A stretch of DNA of 32,000 nucleotides from Akkermansia muciniphila ATCC BAA-835 (GCF_000020225.1 NC_010655.1:2100001-2132000), one strand, 5' to 3'. Positions 8,352-32,000 are shown, counted from the first letter of the stretch. The notes: generated by a model from the sequence alone, not told the origin. Program-made: numbers and translations.

Positions 8352-8591
8352 GATGGCATGTCCGTGCGTTTGTTCGTTCCGCCGCGCCGGAAGGGAAGCA
8401 AGCGGAAAGTTTTCCCCTGTCCGTGCGTTGCGGTTCAATGTCACATATCCGTCACGGGAAGGCAAGCGCATAGCATCCCGGACGGGATATTACAGGGATG
8501 TCCGGGAAAGGCAGGGGAGGAACCAGGAAGGTTTTTCCGTACGGACCGGGAGGCGAATTCCGGTTGGTTCCCGGCTGTCCCGCTGGCAGGT

Positions 8592-10229: not shown

Positions 10230-10232
10230 GGA

Positions 10233-12519: not shown

Positions 12520-14142
12520 TCAGGGAGCCTTGGGGGCCTCCAGTTCCAGCGGCTGTTCCGCATCGGCCCCGGCGAGCATCCAGCCGCCGTCCGTTTGGAT
12601 GAAGTGCAGGTTGTTGACGGAGAATTCATTTCCAACTGCTGTACGCACGCCGATGGTGGCCTTGATTCCGGCGCAGCCGTCTCTGGCGGCGGGAATATAC
12701 GCCGCTTTGACTTCGGGAACGTCTTTTTCCCTTACCCCGGTGTGCGGGGTGGGAATCCTTCCCATGACTGTTTTCAATTGGGAGAGCGCGTCTTCAAATT
12801 CCTTCACGGAGGCGAAGTTGGACGGGGCCAGCATGCGCATCATGGCCAGGCTGTCCCGGTTCGCCAGGGCGCGGCCGGCGGCGGTTACGGCCTCTTCCGG
12901 TGTGGGAAAGGACAGCGGAGGATACGTCCGATGGAAATCCGCCATGATGCGGGCGGTGGTGGATTCGTCCGGTTTCAGATTCCAGGAAGCGAAAGCGTCC
13001 GTCAGGTTCATCTTGAAGACGGGAAGGCCGTCTGTGGGATCCTTGGTTTTTTCCAGCGCATAGCGGTAAATGAGAGCGGGTTTGTCTATGTCCGGCATGC
13101 TCATGCGCGGCGGCAGGATGGTCATGGCTCCGATGCTGTGGATGTCCTTGCCGTTCTTCTTCGCGTTGTTTTTATTGGCTTCCTCCTGCTGGTCTTCTTC
13201 ACGGCTGTTCGGGGCCATCTGGTCGTCCGGATGGGGGCTCAGGGGAACCAGGATGGTATTCGGAAAGGTCATGAAGCTGAGGTGGGTAGGCTGGATATAG
13301 CGGTTTTCCTCCCTTCTGTCCTGGAGGCGCATGGCCTTGACCACGGGAATGAGGCGTGCGCTCTGGGTAATGGCGGATTCCGTATAATACGGGGAAACGA
13401 GCAGGGCGGCGATGAGGGCCGGGTCATCCCCCTTCACGGCCCGGATGAGCAGGTTCTTGAGTTCGTCGTCCGTTGTTCCCCTGACGTTTTCCTGACGGAA
13501 ACGCTTGATATGTTCCAGGGCGGCTTTAACGGCGGCTACGGAGTACTGGTGGGCGAGGCCGAAAATTTTCTTCTTGGCCTCCGAGGATATTTTTTTCGCT
13601 TTCTCACGGATGCCGTCGTCAAAGGGAAGAAATGTGTTGTCAAAGCTTCCGGGAGTCAGGGAGGCCTTCCATTGGCCTTCTTTCTTCACCAGGGCCACGG
13701 CGGTGGCCGCATAAACGTACGGGTTGGCCTTGTCCGGCAGCAGGATGTAGGCCATCGCCAGGTCGCCTTCAGCAATGATGGAGTCTTCATCCACAAAGGG
13801 CGGACGTTCCGGGGCCGCTCCGGTGACATACCCCTGGACCGCCTCCATGCGGGAAAGGATGCTTTTCAGCCTGAGTTGGCTTACAAAGGGGGAAGTGGCG
13901 GGCAATGACTTGTACGGCTCGTGTTTCCAGTCCGTTTTTTCCTGAAGGGCGCGGAGCAGCAGTTTGGCCGCGTTCAACGGCGTGCTCTGGTTCGGAACGG
14001 GGCCCGTGGACGGAGCCTTGTTTCCCGCAGCCTGATCCATATTGATCCGGAAACGGACAGGAGCGCCTTCCGGCGGCTGGCCGCCCCGGGAAAACCCGCA
14101 GCAGAGGCAGAGGCAGAAAAGGGAGAGGGGGAGGATGTTCAT
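12520..14142 (-). CDS. Secreted or lipoprotein-like hypothetical protein (540 aa), no recognisable domain
   Basis: The N-terminus MNILPLSLFCLCLCCGFSRGG is hydrophobic with Cys residues, a lipobox-like signal. The long ORF has protein-like composition and is co-directional with hemB, 54 nt upstream of it. Confidence 0.72.
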   Translation of the reverse strand: MNILPLSLFCLCLCCGFSRGGQPPEGAPVRFRINMDQAAGNKAPSTGPVPNQSTPLNAAKLLLRALQEKTDWKHEPYKSLPATSPFVSQLRLKSILSRMEAVQGYVTGAAPERPPFVDEDSIIAEGDLAMAYILLPDKANPYVYAATAVALVKKEGQWKASLTPGSFDNTFLPFDDGIREKAKKISSEAKKKIFGLAHQYSVAAVKAALEHIKRFRQENVRGTTDDELKNLLIRAVKGDDPALIAALLVSPYYTESAITQSARLIPVVKAMRLQDRREENRYIQPTHLSFMTFPNTILVPLSPHPDDQMAPNSREEDQQEEANKNNAKKNGKDIHSIGAMTILPPRMSMPDIDKPALIYRYALEKTKDPTDGLPVFKMNLTDAFASWNLKPDESTTARIMADFHRTYPPLSFPTPEEAVTAAGRALANRDSLAMMRMLAPSNFASVKEFEDALSQLKTVMGRIPTPHTGVREKDVPEVKAAYIPAARDGCAGIKATIGVRTAVGNEFSVNNLHFIQTDGGWMLAGADAEQPLELEAPKAP

Positions 14143-14402
14143 GACCGCTGGCCGCCACTATGGCATAAACGGCTGCGGGTGTAAATCATTCGTTGGGAAT
14201 GTTGACGCGGCCGTTGCCGCAGGGCGGACAACCCTGGACTCCGGGGAAAAGCGAACAAAAAGGGGGGAAAGGATGCGTTCCGGAAGAAGAATCCGAAAGC
14301 CGGAGGAAAGGGCTTTCCCGCGGCGTTCATGCCTTGAATTTTCGGGAAGAAGGTCTTTTTGCATTTGCCAACAGCGTTTAAGAGAGGTTTACTGATGCGC
14401 GT

Positions 14403-16295
14403 ATGTCCGAACACAAGGAAAGAAAGACTCTTGAAGAACGCCAACAGATGTCTGATCTGGAACGGCTGCGCCACTCCTGCGCGCACGTTCTGGCTACGGC
14501 CATTTGCCGCCTCTGGCCGGATGCCCAGCTGGCCGGCGGGCCTGCCGTGGATAACGGTTTTTATTACGACGTGGAGCTGGACCACCGCATCAGCACAGAG
14601 GATTTTGAACGCATTGAGGAGGAGATGAAAAAAGTGGTGAAGGAAAACCAGGTTTTCCAGAAGGAAGTCATTTCCCGCGCGGATGCCATGAAGATGGCGG
14701 AATCCGGGGAGCTGGGCGCCCTGGGCCCCCGCAGCGAGCCTTCCCGCTTCAAGATTGACCTGCTGAACGACATCCCGGAAGACGAGGAGATTTCCCTCTA
14801 CCGCAACGGGGATTTTACGGACTTGTGCGCCGGTCCCCACGTGGGCCGCACGGGCAACTGCAAGGCATTCAAAATCATGAGCGTGGCGAGCGCCTTCTAC
14901 AAGGGGGACAAAAACCGCCCCATGCTCCAGCGCATTTACGGCACCTGCTTCCCGAACCGCACCCAGCTTGACGAACACCTGGAACGGCTGGAAGAGGCGC
15001 GGCGCCGCGACCACCGCAAACTGGGCCGCGAACTGGGCCTGTTCTGCATTGACGAATCCGTGGGGCAGGGGCTCATCCTCTGGAAGCCCAAGGGGGCTCT
15101 CATCCGCCGTTCCCTGCAGGACTTCATCACGGAAGAGCTGGACAAGCTGGGCTACTCCCAGGTGTACACGCCCAACATCGGCAAGCTGGACCTGTACCGC
15201 ACGTCCGGACACTTCCCGTATTATCAGGAAAGCCAGTACGCGCCCATCCCAGAACGGGACGCCATGGAAAAACTCAGCCAGGAGGGGGCTTCCTGCGCGG
15301 AACTGTTCAACGGCCTGGCCACCGGCACCATTGAGGGCTATATGCTCAAGCCGATGAACTGCCCCCACCACATCAAGATTTACGCGAATGACGCCCACTC
15401 CTACCGGGACCTTCCCGTGCGGCTGGCGGAATTCGGCACGGTGTACCGTTGGGAACAGAGCGGAGAGCTGGGCGGCATGACGCGCGTGCGCGGTTTCACG
15501 CAGGATGACGCCCATATCTTCTGCACGCCGGACCAGCTTGCCGGGGAAATCCGCCAGTGCCTGGGCATCGTGAAAACCATTTTCGGTACGCTGGGCATGA
15601 CGGACTACCGCGTGCGCCTTTCCATGCGCGACCCGGAAAGCGACAAATACGTGGGTTCTCCGGAAAATTGGGACAAAGCGGAACAGGCTCTGCGGGAAGC
15701 TGCGGAATGGCTGGGGGCGGACTACAGCGAGGAAGCTGGGGAAGCCGCCTTCTACGGCCCCAAGATCGACTTCATCGTGCGCGACGCCATCGGCCGCGAA
15801 TGGCAGCTGGGAACCGTGCAGGTGGACTACAACCTGCCGGAACGCTTTGACCTCCATTACACCGGAGCGGACAACAAGCCGCACCGGCCCGTGATGGTGC
15901 ACCGCGCCCCCTTCGGCTCCATGGAACGCTTCACGGGGCTTCTGATTGAACACTTTGAAGGCAAATTCCCCACCTGGCTTTCCCCGGAACAGGTGCGCGT
16001 GCTTCCCATCTCCGACAAGGTGACGGACGTGGCCGCCGCGCATCGAACCGCCCTGGCCGCCAGAGGCGTGCGCGTCACGGTGGACGAAACGCCGGACAAA
16101 ATAGGCGCCAAAATCCGCAATGCCCGTCTGGACCGCGTTCCCTACATGCTGGTGCTCGGCCAGCGGGAGGCGGAAGACGGCACCGTCTCCGTCCGCCACC
16201 GGGACAAGGGGGATCTGGGCGCGATGCCCTTTGAGCAATTCGCGGACCTCGTAGCCCGGGAAATCGCGGAGCGTCATATTTCTCCCGTGATTTGA
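14403..16295 (+). CDS. thrS: Threonine--tRNA ligase
   Basis: The editing-domain motif RHSCAHVLATAI and the class-II core YRWEQSGELGGMTRVRGFTQDDAHIF are present, along with a C-terminal anticodon-binding domain. The HxxxH motif lies at residue ~23, so there is no N-terminal TGS domain. Confidence 0.97.
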   Translation: MSEHKERKTLEERQQMSDLERLRHSCAHVLATAICRLWPDAQLAGGPAVDNGFYYDVELDHRISTEDFERIEEEMKKVVKENQVFQKEVISRADAMKMAESGELGALGPRSEPSRFKIDLLNDIPEDEEISLYRNGDFTDLCAGPHVGRTGNCKAFKIMSVASAFYKGDKNRPMLQRIYGTCFPNRTQLDEHLERLEEARRRDHRKLGRELGLFCIDESVGQGLILWKPKGALIRRSLQDFITEELDKLGYSQVYTPNIGKLDLYRTSGHFPYYQESQYAPIPERDAMEKLSQEGASCAELFNGLATGTIEGYMLKPMNCPHHIKIYANDAHSYRDLPVRLAEFGTVYRWEQSGELGGMTRVRGFTQDDAHIFCTPDQLAGEIRQCLGIVKTIFGTLGMTDYRVRLSMRDPESDKYVGSPENWDKAEQALREAAEWLGADYSEEAGEAAFYGPKIDFIVRDAIGREWQLGTVQVDYNLPERFDLHYTGADNKPHRPVMVHRAPFGSMERFTGLLIEHFEGKFPTWLSPEQVRVLPISDKVTDVAAAHRTALAARGVRVTVDETPDKIGAKIRNARLDRVPYMLVLGQREAEDGTVSVRHRDKGDLGAMPFEQFADLVAREIAERHISPVI

Positions 16296-21090: not shown

Positions 21091-21631
21091 AGCCGGAGGA
21101 TTGCAAGGTGTTAACGCGCTGCCGGACAGCATGGGCCAGCATGTCCCGGCTGGCGGCCGTCATGGGGCGAAGGCTGACGGCAACGGTTGATCCGTCAGTC
21201 AGGCGGAGGTTCAGCCGTCCGCCTTCCCGGTCCGCGGAGCGAATCTGCTGCCAGAAGAACCATTGCATGGTGCGCTGCGTTCTCAGGAACGGCAGGATTT
21301 CCACTCCCACCGGGGTGACGATGACGGCCGCGTGTTTCAGGCAGCGGCTCCCCGCAGCCAGGCAGAGGGCGGCGGGAACAAGCGCCGCGGCCTGCATGGC
21401 CCACAGGGGGGCGGGCAAATACGGGGTAATTGTATCATATCCCGTGAGCTGGAGGAAAGCGGCAGTGGCTGCCAGAAGGAACCCCGCCGCCGTCAGTATG
21501 GCGCCTGACCGGTTCCGGGTGAAGCGCAACTCCCGTTTCCGGACGGGAATGTGCCGGATGTCCTCCACGCCCAGACCGGCCTGAACCGGACGGGGCGCGG
21601 AAGCGGGAAGATGGCGTTCAGGCTCCGGCAT
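21077..21631 (-). CDS. Hypothetical membrane protein (two TM helices plus a small soluble domain)
   Basis: The ATG at 21631 overlaps the upstream stop by 14 nt, and the stop overlaps the next ATG by 14 nt. The hydrophobic segments are AILTAAGFLLAATAAFLQL and LWAMQAAALVPAALCLAAG. Confidence 0.6.
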   Translation of the reverse strand: MPEPERHLPASAPRPVQAGLGVEDIRHIPVRKRELRFTRNRSGAILTAAGFLLAATAAFLQLTGYDTITPYLPAPLWAMQAAALVPAALCLAAGSRCLKHAAVIVTPVGVEILPFLRTQRTMQWFFWQQIRSADREGGRLNLRLTDGSTVAVSLRPMTAASRDMLAHAVRQRVNTLQSSGYGQA

Positions 21632-23003
21632 AGACGCCCGGGAGGATTTCCTTCGTTTCGTCGGAGTCGTTTTCCATCAGCAAGGTGCCCCGGAGAACGG
21701 CTCCGTCCTGGAAGTGGAAGCGGCCGCGCAGGGTCAGCTTGTCCATGCCTATCAGGGAGGGCAGGCCCAGCCCGTCCAGGGAATCCACCAGCTTGTACAG
21801 TTTGGAATCCAGGTCCACCACCGGGGTGTTGCCCTGCCGTTCCGGCGCCAGGGCCACGTTGCCGTGTTCATCCACGGCGATGGCGTCCGAACGGAGCAGG
21901 AACAGGTCGGAAGTGGTTTTGACGGGGAAGAAACGGGAACGCGGGACGTTGACGGCCCTGGCGCCGGGGAAGCATTCGATGCCCGCGCCCATGGCCGTTT
22001 CCAGCTGGTACACCGGGGCGGATTCCGGATCGCGGGGGTTGAGCGTCTTTTTATTACGGATCATGGGCAGCGGGAGTACGCCGCCGTTGGCGTCCAGAAT
22101 TTCCTTGAGGGCGTCCAGGCGTATCCAGAGCGTATTGGTGTTGAAATAGCGGTGCCTGGAAATGTTCTGGAATTCAGGAATGTCCTCATCCGGGCACTGG
22201 GCCACTTCCCGCAGAATCAACTGGCCGTCCGATTTCCTGACAGCCAGGTGGCCGCCTTTCCTGTCCGCCACCGTGCGGCGGGTGACTTCCATGACGAAGG
22301 GGGCGCCGCTTTCCGCAAACCAGCGGAGGAAGTTCATGTCAAGCTGGGCGCCCAGATTGTCGGAATTGGAGACAAAAGCGTATTTAACGCCATCCTCCAG
22401 CAGGCGGTCCAGCCAGCCGGACCCCAGCAGGGCCGGATACAGGTCCCCATGGCCTGGCGGGCACCATTCCAGCTCCGGCTGTTCCGGGCAGCTGGCCGGG
22501 GAGAGGCCGTCCGCCAGGATTTTGGGAACGCGGTTTTGCAGCAGCTCCACTTCGGCGCGGTCCGCAAAGCCGTCCGCCGCGTATTTTTCCAGGTAGGCCA
22601 GCGTGTCCGCGCTGGTGGAGAAAGAGTTCATCAGCAGAAGGCGCACAGGCGTGCCGGAGATGGAGCGCAGATGCTTCACCTGCCTGACGATCAAATCCAG
22701 GAACGTATCCTCTCCTTTTACTTTCAGCAGGCTTTTCGCTTTCTGGAGGCCCATGCTCGTGCCGAGGCCGCCGTTGAGCTTGATGCATACGCAACGGGAA
22801 ATCAGGTCCTTGTCCGCCGCGGGGGTGGAGGCCGTGATGTCCTGCCAGTCTTCCACCTGGTCGGCGGGCAGGATGTCCGTTTCCGGAATCATGCCGGAGT
22901 GGTTGGAAACAAGGGCTTCATAACAACGGGAGAAAGCGTTGACGGCCGCGGCTGAAACGCCGGCGGACTCCATCTTTTCCGCAAAAGGAGTGAACGTACT
23001 CAT
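21618..23003 (-). CDS. UTP--glucose-1-phosphate uridylyltransferase of the eukaryotic UDPGP (type 1) family
   Basis: IKLNGGLGTSMGLQKAKSLL is the UGP-type nucleotide-binding loop. The 461-aa length and overall layout match UDPGP-family enzymes rather than GalU. Confidence 0.87.
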   Translation of the reverse strand: MSTFTPFAEKMESAGVSAAAVNAFSRCYEALVSNHSGMIPETDILPADQVEDWQDITASTPAADKDLISRCVCIKLNGGLGTSMGLQKAKSLLKVKGEDTFLDLIVRQVKHLRSISGTPVRLLLMNSFSTSADTLAYLEKYAADGFADRAEVELLQNRVPKILADGLSPASCPEQPELEWCPPGHGDLYPALLGSGWLDRLLEDGVKYAFVSNSDNLGAQLDMNFLRWFAESGAPFVMEVTRRTVADRKGGHLAVRKSDGQLILREVAQCPDEDIPEFQNISRHRYFNTNTLWIRLDALKEILDANGGVLPLPMIRNKKTLNPRDPESAPVYQLETAMGAGIECFPGARAVNVPRSRFFPVKTTSDLFLLRSDAIAVDEHGNVALAPERQGNTPVVDLDSKLYKLVDSLDGLGLPSLIGMDKLTLRGRFHFQDGAVLRGTLLMENDSDETKEILPGVYAGA

Positions 23004-23101: not shown

Positions 23102-23845
23102 TTATCTGGCTGCCGTCACCCGGATCCGCCGGTAGTCCGCCACCCATTGGGAACCGTCCCATAACTCATCTTTCAGGGAATCCTCCATTTCCTTGAAAAT
23201 CTGGATGCGCTGTTCTTCGCGGAGGTTGTTCAAGTCTTCCCGGAAGAATTGACACGCCCAGTTGCGCAGGCCGTCAGGACCGCCTTTCAGCGGCGTAGGG
23301 CGGTCAAATTCCTTCATTGTTTCCGGGCGGAGCCCGGCTTGTTCCAGAACGCTGCCGTATTCTTCCGCGGCGGGAAAGTAAAAACGCGTTGTGTACGGGA
23401 GGTTCCTGCGTTCCAGGGCTGTCCGAAAAGCTTCCCTGATGCGGAGAATATTGAGGTGGGCTCCGAATTCGCAGACCAGTTTCCCCTGCGGTTTCAGGAC
23501 GCGGGAAACGGCATTTAAGAGAGTCCCATGGTCCGGTATCCAATGGAGGGCCGCATTGGAGAAAACGATGTCAAATCTGTTGCGCCAGGGCATGAGGCGG
23601 GCGTCCAGCACGCGGAAGTCCATGCCGGGATAGAGCTGGCGGGCTTTTGCTATCATTTCCGGAGAGGAGTCCAGGCCGGTGACGGACGCCGATTTCTCCA
23701 GCAGAGCGTGCGTCAGCGTACCGGTTCCGCAGCCCAGGTCCAGAATGGACTGGTCTGGATTTTCCGGTACGCAGGAGAGCAGTTCCCTGCCGTATTCCGC
23801 GACAAAACCGTGTTTGTTTTCGTACCATTCAGCGTTCCAGTCCAT
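23102..23845 (-). CDS. Class I SAM-dependent methyltransferase (Tam/UbiE-like)
   Basis: Motif I is ILDLGCGTGTLT. Post-I is VTGLDSSPEMI, and the later DIVFSNAALHWI is also present. Length is 247 aa. Confidence 0.85.
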   Translation of the reverse strand: MDWNAEWYENKHGFVAEYGRELLSCVPENPDQSILDLGCGTGTLTHALLEKSASVTGLDSSPEMIAKARQLYPGMDFRVLDARLMPWRNRFDIVFSNAALHWIPDHGTLLNAVSRVLKPQGKLVCEFGAHLNILRIREAFRTALERRNLPYTTRFYFPAAEEYGSVLEQAGLRPETMKEFDRPTPLKGGPDGLRNWACQFFREDLNNLREEQRIQIFKEMEDSLKDELWDGSQWVADYRRIRVTAAR

Positions 23846-24000
23846 TACCTCTCCATCATAGGGAAAAAGGGGTTTTTTTTCAAGAAAGACCCTGTCTTTT
23901 TTTCATGGTATTTTTCCCGGAGGGTCTCTGTCCATTTCTCCGCGCCGTGCCGGGATTCTTCTTGCGTTGGCGGGCGGGAAATGGTTAAGATAAGCTTACT

Positions 24001-24849
24001 ATGAAAGCAACAGCCCTGTTCCTGGCGGCTTCCGCCCTGGCCGCGGTTTCCGCCGTCGCCTATGACGGATACGGTTATGACCCCCGGCCCGCGAGTTCCT
24101 ATAACAATACCATCAGCGGAGCGGCCCATATCGGCTATGATTCCCGGTATGCCTATAAAGACGTGGTGGCTTCCTCCCTGCTGAACCGCAGCGGCGTGTT
24201 TAACATCGGCGGCGAGCTGAACCTCAACCTGGCCAGAGACTGGAAGCAGGAAATCGGCGCGGAATACATGGCTTTCTGCGACGGGCTGCTGAGCGACAAG
24301 GACGCCTTTGACGCCAGCTGGAAGGCTGTCAAAGAGCTGTTCCCCAATCTTTCCTTCCGGGGCGGGTATGAGTTGAATTACGGCGGCCTCCCGGGGTATT
24401 TGAGCAAGCGCATGGGGAAGGCTCCCCATTCCCTCGCCCAGTCCGTCACGGCGGGGCTGGCGTATGACGATCCGGGCCACGGCTATTTTGGCTCCCTGGA
24501 TGTGCAGTACGGCTTTTACGGCATGACCGGCTGGCGTATTGACCTGAACGCGGGCAAGCGATGGAGCGGCCTGATTCATGAAAAGGTGGATTTGGAGCTG
24601 AGCGCCGGAACAGGTTATTCCTCCAGTTACTGGGGGCCCGGCGCAGCCGGGTTTGACCAGGTTAACATCAAACTGGCGGCTCCCGTGCGCGTAACGGGTG
24701 TGGACTCCAGCCGCGGGTTCCGGATTATTCCTTTCATCCAGCTTGACTGGGCGGGAAACACCCGTTCCGAAATCCGCCGCTACGCCGGCATGAACGCGAT
24801 TGAGGACTTCCGCATCCGTGTGGGCGTGGAAGCCGTTTACCGTTTTTAA
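24001..24849 (+). CDS. Predicted outer-membrane beta-barrel protein, function unknown
   Basis: The signal peptide is MKATALFLAASALAAVSAVA. The protein is Gly/Tyr/aromatic-rich with alternating strands and ends in the OMP-like signature ...RVGVEAVYRF. Confidence 0.7.
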   Translation: MKATALFLAASALAAVSAVAYDGYGYDPRPASSYNNTISGAAHIGYDSRYAYKDVVASSLLNRSGVFNIGGELNLNLARDWKQEIGAEYMAFCDGLLSDKDAFDASWKAVKELFPNLSFRGGYELNYGGLPGYLSKRMGKAPHSLAQSVTAGLAYDDPGHGYFGSLDVQYGFYGMTGWRIDLNAGKRWSGLIHEKVDLELSAGTGYSSSYWGPGAAGFDQVNIKLAAPVRVTGVDSSRGFRIIPFIQLDWAGNTRSEIRRYAGMNAIEDFRIRVGVEAVYRF

Positions 24850-24858
24850 GCGGCTGCT

Positions 24859-24888
24859 CCGCGGCCCTTTCACCGGGAAGGGCCGCGG
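24859..24888 (+). terminator. GC-rich hairpin 10 nt after the OMP gene stop (no U-tract)
   Basis: CCGCGGCCCTT (24859-24869) pairs perfectly with AAGGGCCGCGG (24878-24888), with an 8-nt loop. Confidence 0.35.
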
Positions 24889-24948
24889 AAGCGTTCCCCC
24901 TTTCCGGGGGCGCATGCCCCCTCCCCGGCTTCTCTTGAATCCCCTGCC

Positions 24949-25545
24949 ATGTTGAAAATGATTTTTCTGCTGGCCCGGCGCATGTTTATACGGCTGCTGC
25001 TGGTGCTGCTTCCGCTGGGCCTGTTTATGTTCCTGGCGCAGGCCATTCCCCTTTCCCCTCTGCAATCCCTGCTGGTGCTGGTTCCGGTGATTGCCTTTGA
25101 AGTGTGGCTCGTCATCAGGCATCTGCTGCCCGTCATGGGGGAGCTGGTGACCAAGACGCTGTATTCCTCCAATATTACTACGGATGAGGAAGTGCTGGTG
25201 GAGGCTTCCAGGCGCATGCTGAATTCCGGGGATCCCCAGGGCGCTCTGGAATTGCTGGAACGCTACCGGAAGGAGAATCCGGGGCTGGTGCGTTCCTGGC
25301 TCATGGAATCCAGCCTGCTGAACGATATGCGCCGGTACGCGGATTCCGTCAACGTCCTTCAGAAAGGACTGGAATACGGAGGGTGGCGCAAGGAGGACCG
25401 GGCTCTGTTCCTGTACAAGATAGGAGCCATTTACGAGTCCCAGCTCAATAACCCGGACAGGGCCCGGAAGTATTGGGAGGAAGCTGCGGATAAATATCCC
25501 GATACGGCCTATGGCCGCTCCGCACGGGACAAGGTTATGTTTTAA
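24949..25545 (+). CDS. Membrane-anchored TPR-like repeat protein
   Basis: The N-terminal part has two hydrophobic stretches (LLLVLLPLGLFMFLA, LLVLVPVIAFEVWLVI). The C-terminal half has helical-repeat sequence (GDPQGALELLERYRKENPG..., YKIGAIYESQLNNPDRARKYWEEAADKYPDTAYG). Confidence 0.7.
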   Translation: MLKMIFLLARRMFIRLLLVLLPLGLFMFLAQAIPLSPLQSLLVLVPVIAFEVWLVIRHLLPVMGELVTKTLYSSNITTDEEVLVEASRRMLNSGDPQGALELLERYRKENPGLVRSWLMESSLLNDMRRYADSVNVLQKGLEYGGWRKEDRALFLYKIGAIYESQLNNPDRARKYWEEAADKYPDTAYGRSARDKVMF

Positions 25546-25807
25546 TGCGGCTTTCCGTGAAGGGATGGCCATCCGGAATTTTTTCATTGCTTTAAAGAAC
25601 CGCGCGTGACGGAGGAATAAGTCTTTTTCCTTATTTTGCGCTGGGAAATATTCTTCAGGGGAGGCGCGATGCCATAGTGGTTCTTTCTGCTGAGCACGGG
25701 GTAATTAAGCATTGTATAGATCAATGTATGTGCTACGATTCTTCCGCATTTAATAATCATGCTTTGCCGTTTCCTTGGAACCGGATTAATTTTTCAACTA
25801 ACAGGAT

Positions 25808-26767
25808 ATGAGTAAAATAAGCCATATAAAATATATGGTGCTTTGCAATCTTCCCTACCGTTTGCGGGAAATCGCCGGACGGATTGCGAAGAAATGCAGG
25901 AGAAGGAAAGACCGGTCTCTTGAAGCGAAGCTGGAGGATATTCGCAATTTGCTTATTTATAACCACCCTATTTCCTCAGTTCCCCCGGCGACGGGGAAGT
26001 TGAGGCTCCTTCAGGACGGCAATACGGTTTTGCTGGCCCTTTTTGCGCGCAAATGCCGGGAAAACGGACTGCGGTACTGGCTGGATTACGGCACTTTGCT
26101 GGGGGCGGTAAGGCACAGGGGCTTTATTCCGTGGGATGATGATCTGGATGTGAGCATGATGAGGCCGGAGTTCGACCGCCTGCTGGAACTGCTTCCCGTT
26201 CTTTTCCCCCGTGAGGAAGGATTTACCTGGAACAGGCACGCCTTTCTGCAAATAGGATATGAGGGCACCCCCCTCAACCTTGATGTGTATCCCTATCATT
26301 TTTATGCAGAGAGTCTTTCATCTCCGGAACAGCATGAAAAGCTGGACAGGCTTTTGAGCGGATTTAAGAAAGACGTGGTGCTGGTAGGTTCCAGGATGAA
26401 CCTGACCGATGGGCAGGTTCAGGAGAAAATCCGCCAGGATATTCTGGAAGGAAGGGATGCTGCCGGGGAAGATGAAGCCCCCGGGATTTTTCTTTCTCCT
26501 GCCATTACGTTTACAAAAAACACGCACCTTTCCTATGAAACGTTCTTTCCCCTTGGCTCCGCAGAATTTGAGGGGATAATATTTTCCGTGCCCAACCATG
26601 CCCGCCAGTACCTGCAATTTTTTTACGGCGACTATCTGTCTTATCCGGAACGCATCCAGTTCAAGCATCCTTCCGTGAAGGCCATGGTGGAGAAGGTTCC
26701 CTTTGAGGCGGCGGTCAACCGTTTCATTGACGTTTACGGAAAGCGGATTGATGCGCTCATGCCATGA
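25808..26767 (+). CDS. LicD-family phospho-headgroup (CDP-alcohol dependent) transferase, copy 1
   Basis: The hallmark LicD motif is LRYWLDYGTLLGAVRHRGFIPWDDDLDVSM. The stop overlaps the next ATG (ATGA at 26764-26767). ATG 25835 is an alternative start. Confidence 0.88.
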   Translation: MSKISHIKYMVLCNLPYRLREIAGRIAKKCRRRKDRSLEAKLEDIRNLLIYNHPISSVPPATGKLRLLQDGNTVLLALFARKCRENGLRYWLDYGTLLGAVRHRGFIPWDDDLDVSMMRPEFDRLLELLPVLFPREEGFTWNRHAFLQIGYEGTPLNLDVYPYHFYAESLSSPEQHEKLDRLLSGFKKDVVLVGSRMNLTDGQVQEKIRQDILEGRDAAGEDEAPGIFLSPAITFTKNTHLSYETFFPLGSAEFEGIIFSVPNHARQYLQFFYGDYLSYPERIQFKHPSVKAMVEKVPFEAAVNRFIDVYGKRIDALMP

Positions 26768-28119
26768 AAACGGTTATTACTTACGGAACCTTTGATTTGC
26801 TGCACACGGGGCACGTGAATCTGCTGAAGAGAGCCCGGAAACTGGGGGACCGGCTCATCGTCGGCGTGACTACGGACAGTTACGACCAGAGCCGCGGCAA
26901 GCTGAATGTCATGGAGAGCCTGGAGGAACGCATGGAAAATGTGCGGAAAACCGGTCTGGCGGATCTCATTATTAAGGAAGAACTAGAAGGGCAGAAGATT
27001 CATGACATACGGAAGTACGGGGCGGATGTTTTTGTGATTGGCTCCGACTGGTCGGGGAAATTTGACTATCTTCGCGATTATTGTGAGGTGGTTTACCTGG
27101 AACGCACCAAGGGCGTTTCTTCAACAGACCTCCGTTCCGCCCGGAATCCCATTGTATATATGGGAATTGCAGGTCACGGGCGCATAGCGGGCCGTTTTCT
27201 CCGGGAGTCCAAATATGTCAGCAATATTGAAATAACAGCCGTTTTCGGAAGGAATGAGGAGAAAGTCCGCCGTTTTGCAGAGTTCCACGCTCTGCTGGAA
27301 TATTATACGGAATACGAACAGTTTCTGGACCGGGTTCATGCCGTTTATATTGCCGTCCCCCATCATCTCCATTATGAAATGGCCAGGAGGGCCCTGTTGC
27401 GGGGGAAGCATGTATTGTGCGAGAAGCCTCTTGCCCTTGCCCGGGAGGAGGCGGAAGAGCTGTTCCGGCTGGCCGAAGAGAAAGGAGTCGTTTTGCTGGA
27501 AGCCCTTAAAACTGCGTTTTGTCCGGCTTTCCAGCAACTGACCAGTTTGGCGGGGAGCGGCATTATTGGTTCCATCAAGGCGGTGGACGCCACGTTTACC
27601 AAGCTGATAGAGGATGAGGCTGCCAGGGAGTATGACCCCATGCAGGCCGGAGGCGCCTGGACGGAACTGGGTTCCTATCCCGCCTTTGTCATTGGGAAGC
27701 TTCTGGGAACCGAGCCCCGCAGGATTCGTTTTGTTACTTGCAGAAAGCCTCATACGGGCGTGGACGTGTTCACGCGCGCGGAATTTCTTTATTCCAATGC
27801 AGTAGCCACCGCCACGGCAGCCATAGGAGCCAAGCAGGAAGGGGACTTGTGCATTACCGGAACGGAGGGGTATATTTATGTGCCGGCGCCTTGGTGGAAG
27901 ACGGAGATGTTTGAAGTGCGGTTTGAGGATGCCCGGCTCAACAGGAAATATTTTGCCAATTTTGAAGGGGATGGGCTGCGTTATGAACTTGGCGCGTTTT
28001 TGCGCCTGATTCATGGCTGCCAGCACGGCAACCGTCTTTTGACCCGTGAGGATTCCGTGTTCATGGCTGATGTTGCCTCCCGTTTCAGGAGAGGGTATTG
28101 CGTGGAAGAGATCAGTTAG
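26764..28119 (+). CDS. Fusion protein: TagD-like (HxGH-type) cytidylyltransferase (aa 1-~130) + Gfo/Idh/MocA-family NAD(P) oxidoreductase (aa ~135-451)
   Basis: The N-terminal part is MKTVITYGTFDLLHTGHVNLLKRARKLGD...RTKGVSSTDLR, carrying the HxGH and RTxGISTT motifs of glycerol-3-phosphate cytidylyltransferases. The C-terminal part is VYMGIAGHGRIAGRF...AVYIAVPHHLHYEMARRALLRGKHVLCEKPLAL, a Rossmann fold plus EKP motif. Confidence 0.85.
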   Translation: MKTVITYGTFDLLHTGHVNLLKRARKLGDRLIVGVTTDSYDQSRGKLNVMESLEERMENVRKTGLADLIIKEELEGQKIHDIRKYGADVFVIGSDWSGKFDYLRDYCEVVYLERTKGVSSTDLRSARNPIVYMGIAGHGRIAGRFLRESKYVSNIEITAVFGRNEEKVRRFAEFHALLEYYTEYEQFLDRVHAVYIAVPHHLHYEMARRALLRGKHVLCEKPLALAREEAEELFRLAEEKGVVLLEALKTAFCPAFQQLTSLAGSGIIGSIKAVDATFTKLIEDEAAREYDPMQAGGAWTELGSYPAFVIGKLLGTEPRRIRFVTCRKPHTGVDVFTRAEFLYSNAVATATAAIGAKQEGDLCITGTEGYIYVPAPWWKTEMFEVRFEDARLNRKYFANFEGDGLRYELGAFLRLIHGCQHGNRLLTREDSVFMADVASRFRRGYCVEEIS

Positions 28120-28216
28120 AAAGAAGAGGCCTTCTTACACCTGTGGAATTCTGGGGTAGTGCCGACGGAACTTTTTCTTGGAACCGTTTTGTTTCGCATG
28201 AATGGAAGCCATCCTA

Positions 28217-29266
28217 TTATTTCTTCCGAAATGGGGAGAATCTGTTCAGTATGGAGGTGTTCCATTCCACAAAGGACTGGAGTGTAGGAACCGGAATGTT
28301 TAATTGCTCCGCCAGATAGCAAATGGGTTTGGTGCCCAGAGGAACATCTTCCGTAAAGTAACGGGAAGAAAAATCGGGAATCCATCCTTGTTTCCGGCGG
28401 GTCATGGGAGCTTTAACCCCATGGAATGCCGGAATAGATTGAATCTTTTTAGTCAACTCTACGGCATTTCTGGATTCATAATAATCTAGGACGGGAATGA
28501 TGTCCTTTCCGATTTCCATGCCGGGACAACAGGAACAGAGGGTCAGAAGTTCTCTATCTGCCTGGATGTACAACTCACTGGCCTCCTCCGTCCATTCTTC
28601 ATAAAAAAGAAACTGCTTGTCATAAAACGTTCCTTCCCTGTAGTGGCGAAACAGACTCATGCAGCGGGAAGGGTGGAGAAGGGGGTTGGAGTTGGTCAAC
28701 AGAAAGGGCCAGGGAGAAGAAAGATGAGTCAGAGGAGTGTCAAATAAGGTTTCCAACATGGCGGACCAATGTTCGGCATTATTTCCTGGGGCTACCCATA
28801 TCCTGTTAAGAGGGCGGCTTCCGAGAATGGAGACGGAATGTCCATATTCCTGCGTCCGACAAATCAGGGGAACCTTGTATATTCCCATCAGGCTGACGGT
28901 GGAAGTCCAAGAGGGATCTTCTGCCATCTCCATGACCTCCGGAGTACCGGGTACAATAACGAGCCCCTGTTCTCGATGCAGATAGGGTTTAATGCGGTGG
29001 CATACCTCCCGAATGCCAAAGCGGGGAACCGCCACCAGCACAAGGTTGCAGTCTTTCAATGTTTCCGGATGGTTGCTGATATGCCCTAGGGGAGCATGGT
29101 GCGTAGTACCGTTTGGAAAGATAGCGGAGAGACTTTTTCCCCATTGATTAGGGTTTCGGGTTAGGATATTGACATGTAGGCCGCGTGTACCCAGCCATCC
29201 CGCCATGGCATGGGCCAGGTTGCCGCCGCCGCAAATGCCTATGACAGGAGTGGAAATTGTATTCAT
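28217..29266 (-). CDS. NAD(P)-dependent octopine/nopaline (opine) dehydrogenase-family protein
   Basis: The N-terminal Rossmann motif is VIGICGGGNLAHAMAGWLGTRG. The ~350-aa size and the motif LLTNSNPLLHPSR resemble the opine-dehydrogenase family. The family call rests on my recognition only. The ATG shares one nt with the upstream stop (TGATG). Confidence 0.68.
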   Translation of the reverse strand: MNTISTPVIGICGGGNLAHAMAGWLGTRGLHVNILTRNPNQWGKSLSAIFPNGTTHHAPLGHISNHPETLKDCNLVLVAVPRFGIREVCHRIKPYLHREQGLVIVPGTPEVMEMAEDPSWTSTVSLMGIYKVPLICRTQEYGHSVSILGSRPLNRIWVAPGNNAEHWSAMLETLFDTPLTHLSSPWPFLLTNSNPLLHPSRCMSLFRHYREGTFYDKQFLFYEEWTEEASELYIQADRELLTLCSCCPGMEIGKDIIPVLDYYESRNAVELTKKIQSIPAFHGVKAPMTRRKQGWIPDFSSRYFTEDVPLGTKPICYLAEQLNIPVPTLQSFVEWNTSILNRFSPFRKK

Positions 29267-31158
29267 CAGGAGGCTGAAGTGGAACAGGATGAAAAAGGGG
29301 ATTCTCCGTTAGTGGGACAAGTAGAAGACGGTTCCGAGCCGGTTTCTGCATGCATGGCCCGGACCAGGGCATCATTGTCGGTTGCGTCTCTGACGGCGAT
29401 ACGGATGAATTCTCTGCCTTCAAATCCTTTTTTCCGGCTACAGTCCTTAACAAGGATGGAGTGGTTTTTCAGCAGAAGGCCGGTCAGGGAGCGGGCTTTC
29501 ATGGGGGGCTTGACCTCGCACATGAAATAGTTTGCCTGGGAGGGGAAAACGTTCAGGAAAGGCACGCGGGAGAGTTTCTGCATGAAGCGGTCCCGTTCCT
29601 TCATGAAACGGTTGCACGCGCGCACGTAGGATTGCTCGTATTTCCCGAAGATTTGCATGTAGAATTCCGCGATGGAATTGATGTTCCAGATGGAAACGTC
29701 TTTTTTTATCCATGCCGCCAATTCCCTGTCTGCGGAGGCCAGAACACCCAGGCGGAGGCCCGGAACGCCGTAGGATTTGGAAATGCTTTTTACCACGGCC
29801 AGGTGGGGATATTCTTCCAGGATGCCGTCTTTCAGCAGCGTATTGTCCGGCATTCCGCAGGAGAAGTCTACAAAGGATTCATCCACGATCAGGCGGATGC
29901 CGCGGGTTTTTGTCCACAGGCAGAGGCGTAGCACATCGCCTTTCGGCAGGAAGAATCCGGAAGGGTTTCCCGGATTGACGAGGAGCAGGGTACCGATGTC
30001 TTTCCCGGAAAAGAATTCCATCAGGTCGTCCGCCGTATAAGTGAAATTCCGGGAAGCGGTATGGAAGGGAACCACCATATCCGGTTTCACCCGGTTGGGG
30101 TATTCTTCAAAGGTAGGGTAGATGACCCCCATTTTCCCTTCCAGGCGGGACATGAGCGCCTTAATGAGTTCCGCCGCGCCGTTGCCGATGCAGATGTATT
30201 CCTGGCTGATGCCGAAGTATTTTGCCGCCAGCAGGCTGTTGACTCTCATTCCGGACGGGTATTCCCTCACTAGGCGTTCAAAATTCGCCTTGAGTTCGGA
30301 CATGAGGCGTTTGTTGGGGAAATAGGGATTGACCAGGTAACAGAAATCCCTGATGCGGGGATAGCGCCAGTAGCCTCCGTACCGGGATTCCATCAGGCGC
30401 AGGTGTTCTTCCCTGTCCGGGGTGAATATGGAGGCTGCGATGTCCAGATCCTGGATGTCGTCTATTTCATACCATGCTTCGCCGCCGAGGCGCAGCGCCT
30501 TGATTTCCGGCTTGTCCAGCAGGGCGATGACCCGCAGCACCTGTTCGTAATATTCATTATTGCCCAGGGCTTTGCTGTAGGCTGTAAGAAAGGGGACGTA
30601 ATGGGTCCGGGAGAATTCCCTGCTGAATTTGTAAATATTGACTGTTTTAAAATATTCCGTCTTTTTCTTGTAGGAGAATTTGCTGCCGGGAATGAATTGC
30701 CTGATGTTGTCGTCTTCATCCAGAGTGACGACCGTGCCGTCCATCCAGCTTTCAAATTTGGCGACGAGAGCAAGGCTGGGGTAGGGATGGCGGAGCAGGG
30801 CATCAATAACGGAGTCTTCAAAAATCAGGTCGGATTCAAAGAGCAGCGTATCGTCCTGAAGCAGGTGTTCCTTGGCCAGGTACAGGGAATAAATATTGTT
30901 GGTGCTGGCGTACAGGGGATTGTCCACATATTCCACAGGGGTGGAAATGTCCAGCTGGGAAAGGAAGGTTTTGAGTTTTTCCCCCTCATAACCCGTAACA
31001 ATCACGATTTTTTCCAGAGACGGGGAAAGGCGGTCCAATTGTCTCATCATGCGTTCTATCAGCGTCACTCCGTTGACCTGGATCATGCACTTGGTATTGT
31101 TCCGGGTGAGCGCTCCCAGTCTTTTTCCCATTCCGGCCGCTAAAATGATCGCCTGCAT
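29266..31158 (-). CDS. Fusion protein: LicC-like sugar/alcohol-phosphate nucleotidyltransferase (aa 1-~245) + CobD/HisC-like class I/II PLP enzyme (aa ~260-600)
   Basis: The N-terminal part is MQAIILAAGMGKRLG...TKCMIQVNG...NNIYSLYL...AWYEIDDIQDL, which parallels the CTP:phosphocholine cytidylyltransferase LicC. The C-terminal part has DFCYLVNPYFP, LLLVNPGNPSG, the PLP-lysine context VKSISKSYGVPGLRLGV (K461) and FIRIAVR. It ends in a Ser/Thr/Pro-rich 25-aa tail. Confidence 0.85.
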   Translation of the reverse strand: MQAIILAAGMGKRLGALTRNNTKCMIQVNGVTLIERMMRQLDRLSPSLEKIVIVTGYEGEKLKTFLSQLDISTPVEYVDNPLYASTNNIYSLYLAKEHLLQDDTLLFESDLIFEDSVIDALLRHPYPSLALVAKFESWMDGTVVTLDEDDNIRQFIPGSKFSYKKKTEYFKTVNIYKFSREFSRTHYVPFLTAYSKALGNNEYYEQVLRVIALLDKPEIKALRLGGEAWYEIDDIQDLDIAASIFTPDREEHLRLMESRYGGYWRYPRIRDFCYLVNPYFPNKRLMSELKANFERLVREYPSGMRVNSLLAAKYFGISQEYICIGNGAAELIKALMSRLEGKMGVIYPTFEEYPNRVKPDMVVPFHTASRNFTYTADDLMEFFSGKDIGTLLLVNPGNPSGFFLPKGDVLRLCLWTKTRGIRLIVDESFVDFSCGMPDNTLLKDGILEEYPHLAVVKSISKSYGVPGLRLGVLASADRELAAWIKKDVSIWNINSIAEFYMQIFGKYEQSYVRACNRFMKERDRFMQKLSRVPFLNVFPSQANYFMCEVKPPMKARSLTGLLLKNHSILVKDCSRKKGFEGREFIRIAVRDATDNDALVRAMHAETGSEPSSTCPTNGESPFSSCSTSAS

Positions 31159-31205
31159 AAGTATTCTAATTTGTCTTCAGAACCTGAGAAAGAACCGGGA
31201 ACTAT

Positions 31206-31381
31206 GTTTAACGGATTGAGCATCCGCCGTCAAAGTAAAAATTTCTGTAAGAATATGTTAATGGGATATTACCCGGGCGAAAAGAAAAAACCGCCTTTTA
31301 TGTTTCATCGCAATCCTTTTATTTTTCATTGATTTAACTTTGGACAGAATGGGAGAAACGTTTAACGGATGCTCAATCCGC
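31206..31381. repeat. Two 22-nt lox-like sites, identical except for a reverse-complemented 5-nt core, flanking 139 bp in a divergent promoter spacer; candidate inverton
   Basis: Site 1 at 31206-31227 is GTTTAACGGAT-TGAGC-ATCCGC. Site 2 at 31360-31381 is GTTTAACGGAT-GCTCA-ATCCGC. This is equivalent to a perfect 15-nt inverted repeat, CGGATTGAGCATCCG (31212-31226) and CGGATGCTCAATCCG (31366-31380). Confidence 0.5.
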
Positions 31382-31492
31382 TTGTTGCCAATACCGTGGA
31401 AAGGGAAGGATAAGGTCTGTCTGCATTTTGGAAAAAGCAGCGTTAATATCATGGAACGGGTGTTTTCTCCGAAAAGGATAATTTGTTTTTCA

Positions 31493-31520
31493 TTGACTTG
31501 TAAAAAGTGGGGGATAAGGT
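31493..31520 (+). promoter_or_regulatory. Candidate sigma70-like promoter for the second LicD gene
   Basis: TTGACT (31493-31498), a 16-nt spacer, then TAAGGT (31515-31520). It lies 74 nt upstream of ATG 31594. The -35 is part of a recurring TTTTTCATTGAYTT motif. This is sequence-pattern evidence only. Confidence 0.3.
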
Positions 31521-31593
31521 TCTGATTCTGCCGGATGTGCTTTCCTGGAAAAATGAATCATATCCTGCGTGTTTTTGACCCAATTTATCTGCG

Positions 31594-32000
31594 ATGAAGC
31601 TGCCATCATTCATTACCGCCGGAAGGACTGGAAAATTAGTAAGGGGAAAGCATTGGTGGGTGACGGAAGTCCGGTGCTGCGGCCTGAAAGTGCTTTCTTC
31701 CTGCACGGATAGGAAAAAGCGTTTCATCCGTTTTTTCGGTATTCCATGCGGACGGTTCAAGGTGGGCCGGGAAGGTGAAGCCTCCCAATTGGGCAAACTG
31801 GTAAAAGCTACCGTTCGGGCCGAGGAGATGCCCCAGGCGTCCGGAGTGCTGAGGATTGTGCAGCAGGCCATGACCTGTTTTTTGAATGAAGTGGCCGGAA
31901 TTCTTGAGGAGGGCGGTTATCCGTACTGGCTTGATTTCGGGACGCTGCTGGGCGCGGTGCGGCACCGGGGCTTTATCCCCTGGGATGACGACCTGGATAT
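31594..32000 (+). CDS. LicD-family transferase, copy 2 (5' partial; runs off the window; not in the supplied ORF track because it has no stop)
   Basis: My translation of the frame in which 31594 is a first codon position is open from 31579 to the window end. It reads ...MPQASGVLRIVQQAMTCFLNEVAGILEEGGYPYWLDFGTLLGAVRHRGFIPWDDDLD. This matches the copy-1 motif at the protein level with different codons. The start is either ATG 31594 (third-position GC is elevated from ~31650 on) or ATG 31828, which would give a canonical LicD N-terminus. Confidence 0.8.
   Translation, partial: MKLPSFITAGRTGKLVRGKHWWVTEVRCCGLKVLSSCTDRKKRFIRFFGIPCGRFKVGREGEASQLGKLVKATVRAEEMPQASGVLRIVQQAMTCFLNEVAGILEEGGYPYWLDFGTLLGAVRHRGFIPWDDDLD

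Follow-up and report, generated by a model that had tools for sequence, protein, structure and literature searches.

The bifunctional gene and its product

The DNA analysed here, referred to below as the window, is a stretch of 32,000 nucleotides from Akkermansia muciniphila ATCC BAA-835 (NC_010655.1:2100001-2132000), and all positions are counted from its first letter. Towards its end, on the minus strand, lies an ATG-started open reading frame (ORF) of 630 codons whose product joins a LicC-like nucleotidyltransferase (NTase) domain to a pyridoxal 5'-phosphate (PLP) domain of the CobD/HisC type, and which is coupled to a downstream gene of the opine dehydrogenase (ODH) family. We propose, and rate the chances as about even, that this fusion protein is a bifunctional enzyme of surface-glycan decoration whose product is turned into an opine-type head group through the ODH and a LicD-family phosphotransferase. 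The features on which this proposal turns are the following.

29266..31158, minus strand: gene for the bifunctional protein (nucleotidyltransferase and PLP domains), 630 aa, from the ORF list, Pfam and NCBIfam matches, with CCTCCTGATGAATAC at the junction with the downstream gene
30409..31158, minus strand: LicC/PntC-like cytidylyltransferase domain, aa 1-~250, from matches to 1JYK and 6PD1 and residue conservation
29341..30378, minus strand: fold-type I PLP domain of the CobD/SMUL_1544/HisC subgroup, aa ~261-606, from matches to 6OUX and 1LC5 and from Foldseek
29269..29340, minus strand: Ser/Thr/Pro-rich C-terminal tail, aa ~607-630, predicted disordered and non-conserved, from the per-residue model confidence (pLDDT) and cluster lengths
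28217..29266, minus strand: octopine/opine-dehydrogenase family gene, 349 aa, translationally coupled downstream of the fusion gene, from PF02317

Pfam recognises NTP_transf_3 (aa 3-133, E=1.7e-11) and NTP_transferase in the N-terminal half and Aminotran_1_2 (aa 311-601, E=1.8e-28) in the C-terminal half, all above their gathering cut-offs. Together with the length of the ORF and the NCBIfam and PDB matches given below, these assignments bear out what a preliminary description of the window had claimed, namely a single polypeptide with a LicC-like part followed by a CobD/HisC-type PLP part; the motifs that it listed (MQAIILAAGMGKRLG, NNIYSLYL, YEIDDIQD, DFCYLVNPYFP, NPGNPSG, SISKSYGVPGLRLG and IRIAVR) are all found in the translation. 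An identical protein is encoded on 619 contigs of A. muciniphila, and full-length relatives reach down to about 31% identity, so that the fusion is a real, conserved gene and no chance ORF. Its database entry, WP_065529109.1, bears the generic name 'aminotransferase class I/II-fold PLP-dependent enzyme'.

When 1.84 billion representative proteins were searched, 638 matched at E<=1e-30, and the best 150 of these are nearly all end-to-end fusions of ~600 aa, down to 31% identity. Fusion is thus the rule among these best matches, and the possibility, raised in the preliminary description, that the two halves are separate genes in most relatives does not hold. When one genome per species was scanned, at least 594 species genomes were found to hold a relative of the fusion, and the best 80 of these belong mostly to gut Bacteroidales and Clostridia. 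The family is large, and carries only generic annotation in the sources that were checked.

The AlphaFold2 model of the protein, for which 30 homologues served as input, is confident overall (mean pLDDT 83.6, pTM 0.82), with the exception of residues 612-630, where pLDDT falls below 50 and the final 19 residues are disordered. The Akkermansia cluster at 90% identity contains three different protein ends, at 611, 613 or 630 aa, and most relatives end near aa 606. Because the ends differ within one cluster and disorder is predicted, the tail, previously called unexplained, is best regarded as a disordered, strain-variable extension that forms no domain.

A LicC/PntC-like nucleotidyltransferase domain

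The N-terminal half scores above the cut-offs of both PF12804 (45 bits, cut-off 27) and PF00483 (30 bits, cut-off 21.2). Its sequence matches in the PDB are LicC (1JYK), over aa 2-129 with E=9.5e-14 to 9e-13, and PntC (6PD1), from aa 2 to about 253-254 with E=9e-11. The key residues are the G-loop LAAGMGKRL, K23, TNNIYSL, E108-S-D110, K171, Y204-E205 and WYE231-I-D233, and the G-loop, K23, D110, E231 and D233 supply the nucleotide-binding, catalytic and metal-ligand positions of the LicC/PntC type. Across 111 full-length members of the family, G9, G11, R13, K23, N87, D110, K171, E231 and D233 are each at least 93% conserved. In Tde1415, the Treponema denticola protein that contains PntC, the residues chosen for mutagenesis were R15, K25 and K153.

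The substrate pocket offers a further comparison. In Tde-PntC, Glu104 and Glu196 hold the amine of 2-aminoethylphosphonate (AEP), whereas LicC has the shorter Asp at both positions. In the fusion protein the near-invariant E108 is aligned with Glu104, and E205, also near-invariant, lies one residue off Glu196; the gapless alignment sets Glu196 opposite Y204. Since E108 and E205 match the Glu pair of PntC where LicC has Asp, the pocket points to a small, amine-bearing substrate in preference to choline. The domain is predicted to use CTP and to accept a phospho-amino-alcohol.

A PLP domain closest to SMUL_1544 and CobD

The C-terminal half carries GGYWR, N277-P, N398, D426, S458, K461, R469, K571 and R586 as its key residues, with K461 (codon 29776-29778) as the Schiff-base lysine. 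In the PDB sequence search its best match is 6OUX, described there as 'SMUL_1544, a decarboxylase from Sulfurospirillum multivorans' (aa 271-603, 154.8 bits, E=2.8e-44), followed by CobD 1LC5 (110.6 bits, E=6.8e-31); 3FTB was also matched, and validated HisC proteins reach at most 77.7 bits. The Foldseek ranking of single-domain PDB structures is the same, with 6OUX first (TMt 0.79-0.83, 30-31% identity), Salmonella enterica CobD second (TMt 0.82-0.84, 25% identity) and true histidinol-phosphate aminotransferases third (E about 1e-23). The best NCBIfam match is likewise CobD (TIGR01140, aa 266-602, 158.8 bits) and the second HisC (TIGR01141, 122.9 bits), both well short of the equivalog cut-offs of 290.55 and 276.55, respectively. 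Resolved by domain, the comparison by hidden Markov model (HMM) and structure therefore favours SMUL_1544 and CobD over HisC by a moderate margin, in keeping with the decarboxylase suggested earlier. The family scores lie so far below their cut-offs, however, that the domain is to be placed in a clade of its own, whose reaction specificity cannot be read from sequence.

In the HMMER alignment to CobD, R337 corresponds to R586, and R323 is replaced by the conserved K571; we take R323 and R337 to be the pair that holds the substrate phosphate in CobD. The PLP site of the CobD type is thus retained in K461, D426 and R586, with K571 supplying the charge, if not the residue, of R323. With R586 and K571 at the positions of the phosphate pair, a phosphate or phosphodiester substrate is to be expected. 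Among the 111 members, D426 is kept in 110, R586 in 104, K461 in 97 and K571 in 93, so that the signature residues of both halves are conserved and non-conservation, which would have spoken against the earlier interpretation, is not observed.

Gene context separates the domain from the housekeeping pathways of its relatives. No cob or cbi genes occur among the neighbours of the fusion in the window or the related loci, where LicD, ODH, polysaccharide genes and a TagD-like cytidylyltransferase fused to a GFO/IDH/MocA oxidoreductase (TagD-GFO) are found instead, and no his genes lie near it. A role in cobamide or histidine biosynthesis is ruled out by this context and by the missed equivalog cut-offs. 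Among characterised enzymes, SMUL_1544 and Cj1436, the latter from a capsule locus, are both decarboxylases of O-phospho-L-serine, and Cj1437, also encoded in a capsule locus, is a transaminase that converts dihydroxyacetone phosphate (DHAP) to serinol phosphate. No residues are known that would reliably tell decarboxylase from transaminase, or phosphoserine from phosphothreonine as substrate.

An opine or imine dehydrogenase partner

The TGA stop codon of the fusion gene (29268-29266) shares its final base with the first base of the ATG of the downstream gene (TGATG, a 1-nt overlap). The product of that gene belongs clearly to the opine dehydrogenase family (PF02317, 108 bits against a cut-off of 30). 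It aligns over its full length with octopine dehydrogenase of Pecten (3C7A/3IQD, E=1e-18), and also with the N-(1-carboxyethyl)-norvaline dehydrogenase of Arthrobacter (CENDH, 1BG6). H198, R302 and D307 are aligned with His212, Arg324 and Asp329 of 3C7A, which we take to be the catalytic residues of octopine dehydrogenase, and none of the 36 partner ODHs departs from this triad. The gene product is accordingly proposed, on the basis of these alignments, to be an N-(carboxyalkyl)-forming tailoring enzyme.

The context of the fusion gene was surveyed at 82 non-redundant loci of its closest relatives (56-70% identity), with ORFs called by a simple ATG-longest-ORF heuristic and neighbours classed by Pfam and by HMMs built from seed sequences. 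The 68 genes that lie immediately downstream on the same strand include 34 of the Octopine_DH family (PF02317) and 17 of the OCD_Mu_crystall family (PF02423, hereafter OCD). Counting the window, ODH is present in 35 of the 82 loci and OCD in 19; the two never co-occur, one or the other is found in 54 loci, and in 51 it is the next gene after the fusion. A LicD gene lies no more than 8 kb away in 53 loci, and 59 have either LicD or a TagF-like gene, so that the suspected linkage of the fusion to LicD is supported. Restricting the count to the 59 loci that reach 3 kb or more in both directions leaves 42 with a dehydrogenase of either family and 46 with a LicD or TagF-like gene.

The usual order is fusion, then ODH or OCD, then LicD, embedded in polysaccharide loci with Wzx, Wzy, glycosyltransferases, Wza and Wzz; this order, with LicD or TagF in the last place, is conserved across gut Bacteroidales, Clostridia and Akkermansia. 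Where the dehydrogenase is missing, the next gene after the fusion is one for LicD, a TagF-like protein or Wzx. The closest locus from outside A. muciniphila (L003) consists of a minimal cassette on its own, in which a LicD gene diverges from the fusion and its downstream ODH. All of the recurrent partners are amine-modifying enzymes or CDP-alcohol phosphotransferases. The surveyed loci contain no pathway kinase; the sole recurrent kinase-like neighbour, labelled 'AIR synthase-related', is ThiL (TIGR01379, 323.7 bits against a cut-off of 184) and belongs to a housekeeping flank. In Prevotellaceae, single ODH-LicD proteins of 596-922 aa are encoded directly downstream of the fusion gene (L077:9838-12606, L079:9858-11648 and L083:9852-11648).

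The partner OCDs, one of which is encoded in Parabacteroides gordonii (L011), resemble pyrroline-2-carboxylate reductase, SbnB, ketimine reductase and archaeal alanine dehydrogenase. Unrelated in fold, ODH and OCD have one type of reaction in common, in which the imine formed from an amine and a 2-oxo acid is reduced with NAD(P)H; CntM, which takes part in making staphylopine, and the tauropine dehydrogenase of the OCD family are both opine dehydrogenases. Loci with ODH, with OCD and without a partner are interleaved among nearest-neighbour fusion proteins, and this, with the mutual exclusion of the two partners, indicates that they are interchangeable, one function having undergone non-orthologous displacement. 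The conserved coupling of an opine or imine dehydrogenase in turn implies that the amine is further modified on its nitrogen.

Variant fusions

Several relatives depart from the two-domain plan. Four proteins of 830-854 aa (P0123, P0124, P0223 and P0238) are triple fusions that carry an S-adenosylmethionine (SAM) methyltransferase as a C-terminal third domain; P0124 is encoded at L086:5416-7944, and one triple-fusion gene overlaps a TagF-like gene. In P0240 a TagF-like domain replaces the NTase and is joined to the PLP domain. These variants hint at N-methylated, choline-like head groups made de novo. A specific role for the fused methyltransferase could not be assigned, its fold being that of a generic class I enzyme and its likeness to phosphoethanolamine N-methyltransferase weak and non-diagnostic (24.7 bits).

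An actinobacterial member that is 31% identical to the window protein (P0252, L084:10001-11842) lies inside a natural-product cluster resembling those of nonribosomal peptide synthetases (NRPS), with adenylation, peptidyl carrier protein, condensation and ATP-grasp genes. Some members of the family thus act in secondary metabolism, as FrbH does, and such distant ones may carry out other chemistry.

The low-GC island and the remainder of the window

The remaining features around the fusion gene are the following.

25808..26767, plus strand: LicD1, LicD family, 319 aa, convergent with ODH (PF04991, E=5.3e-31)
26764..28119, plus strand: TagD-like cytidylyltransferase fused to a GFO/IDH/MocA oxidoreductase (TagD-GFO), 451 aa, from Pfam
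31159..31593, no strand: divergent AT-rich intergenic region, 435 bp, GC ~0.42, presumed promoter region, from sequence and composition
31594..32000, plus strand: LicD2, LicD-family phosphotransferase, divergent from the fusion and truncated by the end of the window, from its translation and its likeness to the LicD of L003

The fusion gene is thus flanked by two LicD genes, as had been noted. LicD1 is 48% identical to the LicD of L003 over 297 aa; LicD2, whose start is inferred at 31594 and whose visible fragment is 57 aa long, is 58% identical to it over those 57 aa and occupies the same position as the sole LicD of that locus. Either of the two may be the partner of the fusion, as both proteins resemble the LicD of L003 and the LicD2 fragment is too short to separate them. 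LicD1 may work with TagD-GFO, the start of which overlaps its stop codon, or may be the island's second transferase for modifying an acceptor. TagD-GFO (PF01467, E=6.6e-21; PF01408, E=1.1e-24; TIGR01518, 113.6 bits, below cut-off) is present in only 6 of the 82 related loci, and is probably a separate CDP-alcohol module which supplies another donor, a reduced or oxidised polyol phosphate. Promoter and terminator scans between 25.5 and 32 kb gave no excess over shuffled expectation.

LicD1, TagD-GFO, ODH, the fusion and LicD2 together make up an island at ~25500-32000 whose GC content, mostly given as 0.47-0.55 and at its extremes 0.42-0.56, lies below the 0.60-0.65 of the flanking housekeeping genes, the drop starting at ~25.5 kb. 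This difference suggests that the island was acquired horizontally. Just outside it are a eukaryotic-type UDP-sugar pyrophosphorylase of the UDPGP family (21618-23003, minus strand; PF01704, 399 bits) and, adjoining this, a class I SAM methyltransferase (23102-23845, minus strand).

A 580-aa ORF between the methyltransferase and LicD1 (23845..25587, minus strand) has no domains and a biased composition, runs antisense to TPR-containing ORFs and was treated as spurious. It is one of several long domain-less ORFs of 540-924 aa in the window, the others being 14139-16277 (minus), 12520-14142 (minus) and 7476-10250 (plus). Three of the four are antisense to real genes, namely the TPR-containing ORFs, thrS, and a histidine kinase with an epimerase; opposite 12520-14142 no gene was identified. 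All appear to be spurious frames of the kind typical of a GC-rich genome. At the other end of the window, 318-6179 (plus strand) encodes an autotransporter of 1953 aa, with PATR repeats in its passenger part and a beta-domain at the C-terminus (PF03797, E=3.9e-40).

A proposed route to an opine-type head group

We propose the following mechanism of how the cassette might act. The PLP domain would decarboxylate a phospho-amino acid to a phospho-amino-alcohol; O-phospho-L-serine, giving phosphoethanolamine, is the most likely substrate because it is a central metabolite and because this is the reaction of Cj1436 and SMUL_1544, and O-phospho-L-threonine is less likely. The LicC/PntC-like domain would use CTP to produce the CDP-activated form, and the PLP and NTase steps might occur in either order. 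The ODH or OCD enzyme would then use NAD(P)H to condense the amine with a 2-oxo acid, pyruvate being the simplest candidate, to yield a secondary N-(1-carboxyalkyl)amino-alcohol phosphate, that is, an opine-type head group. This step must come after that of the PLP domain because a secondary amine cannot be a PLP substrate. Finally, LicD or a TagF-like phosphotransferase would move the head group from its CDP donor onto a glycan of A. muciniphila. In this scheme we infer the identity of the substrate, decarboxylation over transamination, the point at which the dehydrogenase acts, the oxo acid and the acceptor. The donor is probably an N-(carboxyalkyl) phospho-amino-alcohol and not plain CDP-ethanolamine, although in the third or so of loci that lack the dehydrogenase the plain CDP-amino-alcohol may well be what is transferred. 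N-(1-carboxyethyl) 'opine' groups are established constituents of Providencia O-antigens.

Several observations weigh against this scheme. Neither ODH nor OCD is found in 28 of the 82 loci (17 of the 59 that reach 3 kb or more in both directions), from which it follows that the dehydrogenase is not obligatory. The Schiff-base lysine is lost in 14 of the 111 members while the catalytic residues of the NTase are kept, so that PLP chemistry is dispensable in some lineages. A decarboxylase and a DHAP-type transaminase are indistinguishable here by sequence alone, and the HisC-type transaminases are only moderately more distant from the PLP domain. Published analyses of A. muciniphila lipooligosaccharide (LOS) report no ethanolamine- or choline-type phosphate substituent, and no paper linking LicD, opine dehydrogenase and decarboxylase families was found in the open-access literature. 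A known glycan substituent, 2-[(1-carboxyethyl)amino]ethyl phosphate in the O14 antigen of Proteus mirabilis, could not here be linked to genes; our search of the literature on carboxyethylamino-ethyl phosphate yielded nothing usable. Papers on the LOS and capsule of A. muciniphila are silent on the fusion locus and on any ethanolamine or choline phosphate substituent.

The members without the lysine are P0123, P0126, P0130, P0131, P0136, P0147, P0148, P0155, P0161, P0166, P0173, P0187, P0195 and P0268, and the PLP domains of these proteins are, judging from the lost residue, probable pseudo-enzymes.

As for the order of the first two steps, the preliminary description assumed that decarboxylation precedes cytidylylation. 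FrbH, the sole characterised fusion of an NTase and a decarboxylase, runs in reverse: cytidylylation comes first and the CMP conjugate is decarboxylated. Applied to the window protein, which would depart from the mechanism above in step order only, the NTase would cytidylylate the phospho-amino acid and the PLP domain would decarboxylate the CDP conjugate, so that O-phospho-L-serine and CTP would give CDP-L-serine, then CDP-ethanolamine, which would pass to ODH and LicD. We consider this possible, if on balance unlikely. It gains from the position of P0252 in an actinobacterial NRPS-type cluster, as for FrbH-type enzymes, from the TagF-PLP (P0240) and ODH-LicD fusions, which place PLP and ODH chemistry beside the CDP-consuming step, and from K571, which in place of the Arg of CobD, SMUL_1544 and HisC would suit a less charged phosphodiester. 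On the other hand, CobD, SMUL_1544 and Cj1436 all use free phospho-amino acids, and the pocket formed by E108 and E205 resembles that of PntC, the binder of a simple amine.

A transaminase like HisC or Cj1437 is a weaker candidate, and we regard it as unlikely. It would convert DHAP or another 2-oxo-alkyl phosphate to a product such as serinol phosphate, which would be CDP-activated and transferred by LicD with or without N-carboxyalkylation. Cj1437 carries out exactly the conversion of DHAP to serinol phosphate in a capsule locus, DHAP is an abundant metabolite, and HisC belongs to the same subfamily as the PLP domain, as the NCBIfam score and Foldseek match quoted above reflect. The keto intermediate could even be supplied by the GFO/IDH/MocA-TagD fusion of the island, but its rarity among the related loci tells against such a partnership, and in both sequence and fold the PLP domain is consistently nearer to two validated decarboxylases than to any validated HisC.

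More improbable still is that plain CDP-ethanolamine or CDP-aminopropanol is moved unmodified by LicD, the dehydrogenase being unrelated or acting on something other than an amine. Phosphoethanolamine is a common glycan substituent, and the third or so of loci without ODH or OCD would fit such a donor. Yet the ODH of the window is translationally coupled to the fusion, two unrelated imine-reductase folds fill the downstream slot without ever occurring together, and ODH-LicD fusion proteins exist, as does an invariant ODH triad. The direct hand-over of a CDP-amino-alcohol to LicD, as first described, overlooked this coupled ODH or OCD of 54 loci and is not supported. A phosphonate pathway like those of PntC-AEPT and FrbH, providing AEP or another C-P compound to the cell surface, was rejected as highly improbable despite the whole-length structural match to 6PD1/6PD2 and the PntC-like Glu residues, because the PEP-mutase motif EDKxxxxxNS is missing from the window and from 83-86 related loci, bar one chance match in a 101-aa ORF, no Ppm or Ppd family occurs in the recurrent neighbour clusters, and the Tde1415 transaminase is of class V and not of the CobD/HisC type.

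Taken as a whole, then, the preliminary description was right about the architecture, the catalytic residues, the likeness to decarboxylases and the linkage to LicD, and was unsupported or incomplete in its end product, its step order and its account of the tail. Our own generalisation of the proposed mechanism, in which the cassette of LicD, fusion and opine or imine dehydrogenase would be widespread in gut capsule and O-antigen loci and would build opine-type decorations there, namely N-(1-carboxyalkyl)aminoethyl or -aminopropyl phosphates on bacterial polysaccharides, is tentative, and we place it short of an even chance. If true, it would draw on phosphoserine, CTP, a 2-oxo acid and NAD(P)H, and would put a zwitterionic or acidic phospho-head group, unreported in current A. 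muciniphila glycan analyses, on human and animal commensals of the gut Bacteroidales, Clostridia and Akkermansia; the methyltransferase-fused sister variants would make N-methylated, choline-like head groups without imported choline.

Phosphocholine, phosphoethanolamine and aminoethylphosphonate head groups affect host recognition, the binding of complement and C-reactive protein, and resistance to antimicrobial peptides, and the cassette would be a choline-independent route to such a head group from central metabolites. A. muciniphila is a species of strong therapeutic interest. With the function assigned, many capsule loci could be better annotated and a new surface epitope predicted, and the NTase-decarboxylase and ODH would form an enzyme pair for making CDP-activated amino-alcohols. 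The interest would grow if an opine-type head group were confirmed on A. muciniphila or Bacteroidales capsules.

Relation to known systems

By architecture, the fusion protein is matched by FrbH, from the biosynthesis of FR-900098 in Streptomyces rubellomurinus, in which an N-terminal cytidylyltransferase and a C-terminal PLP decarboxylase likewise share one chain and give a CMP-activated amino compound. The domain order is common to both, but the substrate of FrbH is a phosphonate amino acid (2-amino-4-phosphonobutyrate) and its gene belongs to an antibiotic cluster, whereas the gene of the window stands in a LicD/opine-dehydrogenase cassette with neither a phosphonate substrate nor a PEP-mutase cluster indicated. 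PntC-AEPT (Tde1415) of Treponema denticola is a second parallel, with an N-terminal LicC-like NTase, a PLP enzyme that makes the amine substrate of the NTase, and a role in cell-surface tailoring with LicD-like transferases. Its structures, 6PD1 and 6PD2, are the only whole-length Foldseek match, with the same domain order in another orientation (TM 0.38, root-mean-square deviation 22 A). The sequence match is confined to the NTase half: the PLP part of PntC-AEPT belongs to the class V (PhnW-type) transaminases and has phosphonoacetaldehyde as its substrate, while that of the fusion is class I/II CobD/HisC, matches Aminotran_1_2 and does not match 6PD1 by sequence.

The nearest kin of the PLP domain, SMUL_1544, Cj1436 and CobD, have the PLP lysine, the Asp and one phosphate-binding Arg in common with it. 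They are single-domain enzymes, unlike the window domain with its fused NTase, and SMUL_1544 and CobD differ further in belonging to cobamide biosynthesis. The LicC/LicD system of Streptococcus pneumoniae and Haemophilus also employs a PF12804 NTase with CTP, followed by LicD transfer to glycans. In contrast to that system, the fusion is accompanied by neither a LicA kinase nor a LicB transporter, the fused PLP domain would make the head group de novo, an opine-dehydrogenase step would be added, and the pocket carries Glu as in PntC where that of LicC carries Asp.

With the opine dehydrogenases proper, the partner shares full-length homology and an aligned triad, and would be expected to join an amine to a 2-oxo acid with the use of NAD(P)H; it differs in that it is exchanged between loci for an OCD/mu-crystallin enzyme. 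No opine dehydrogenase is known to take a phospho- or CDP-amino-alcohol as substrate or to take part in glycan decoration with LicD, and to our knowledge such a step has been assigned to no glycan pathway. No paper describing the combination of NTase-PLP fusion, opine or imine dehydrogenase and LicD was found in the open-access literature. The concept of an NTase-PLP fusion is already known from FrbH and PntC-AEPT, and the advance is therefore a further branch of an established logic, the principle itself being familiar. What is new is that a CobD/SMUL_1544-type domain is joined to a LicC-type NTase in glycan loci, how large the family is and how it is distributed in the gut, and its conserved, interchangeable opine or imine dehydrogenase partner.

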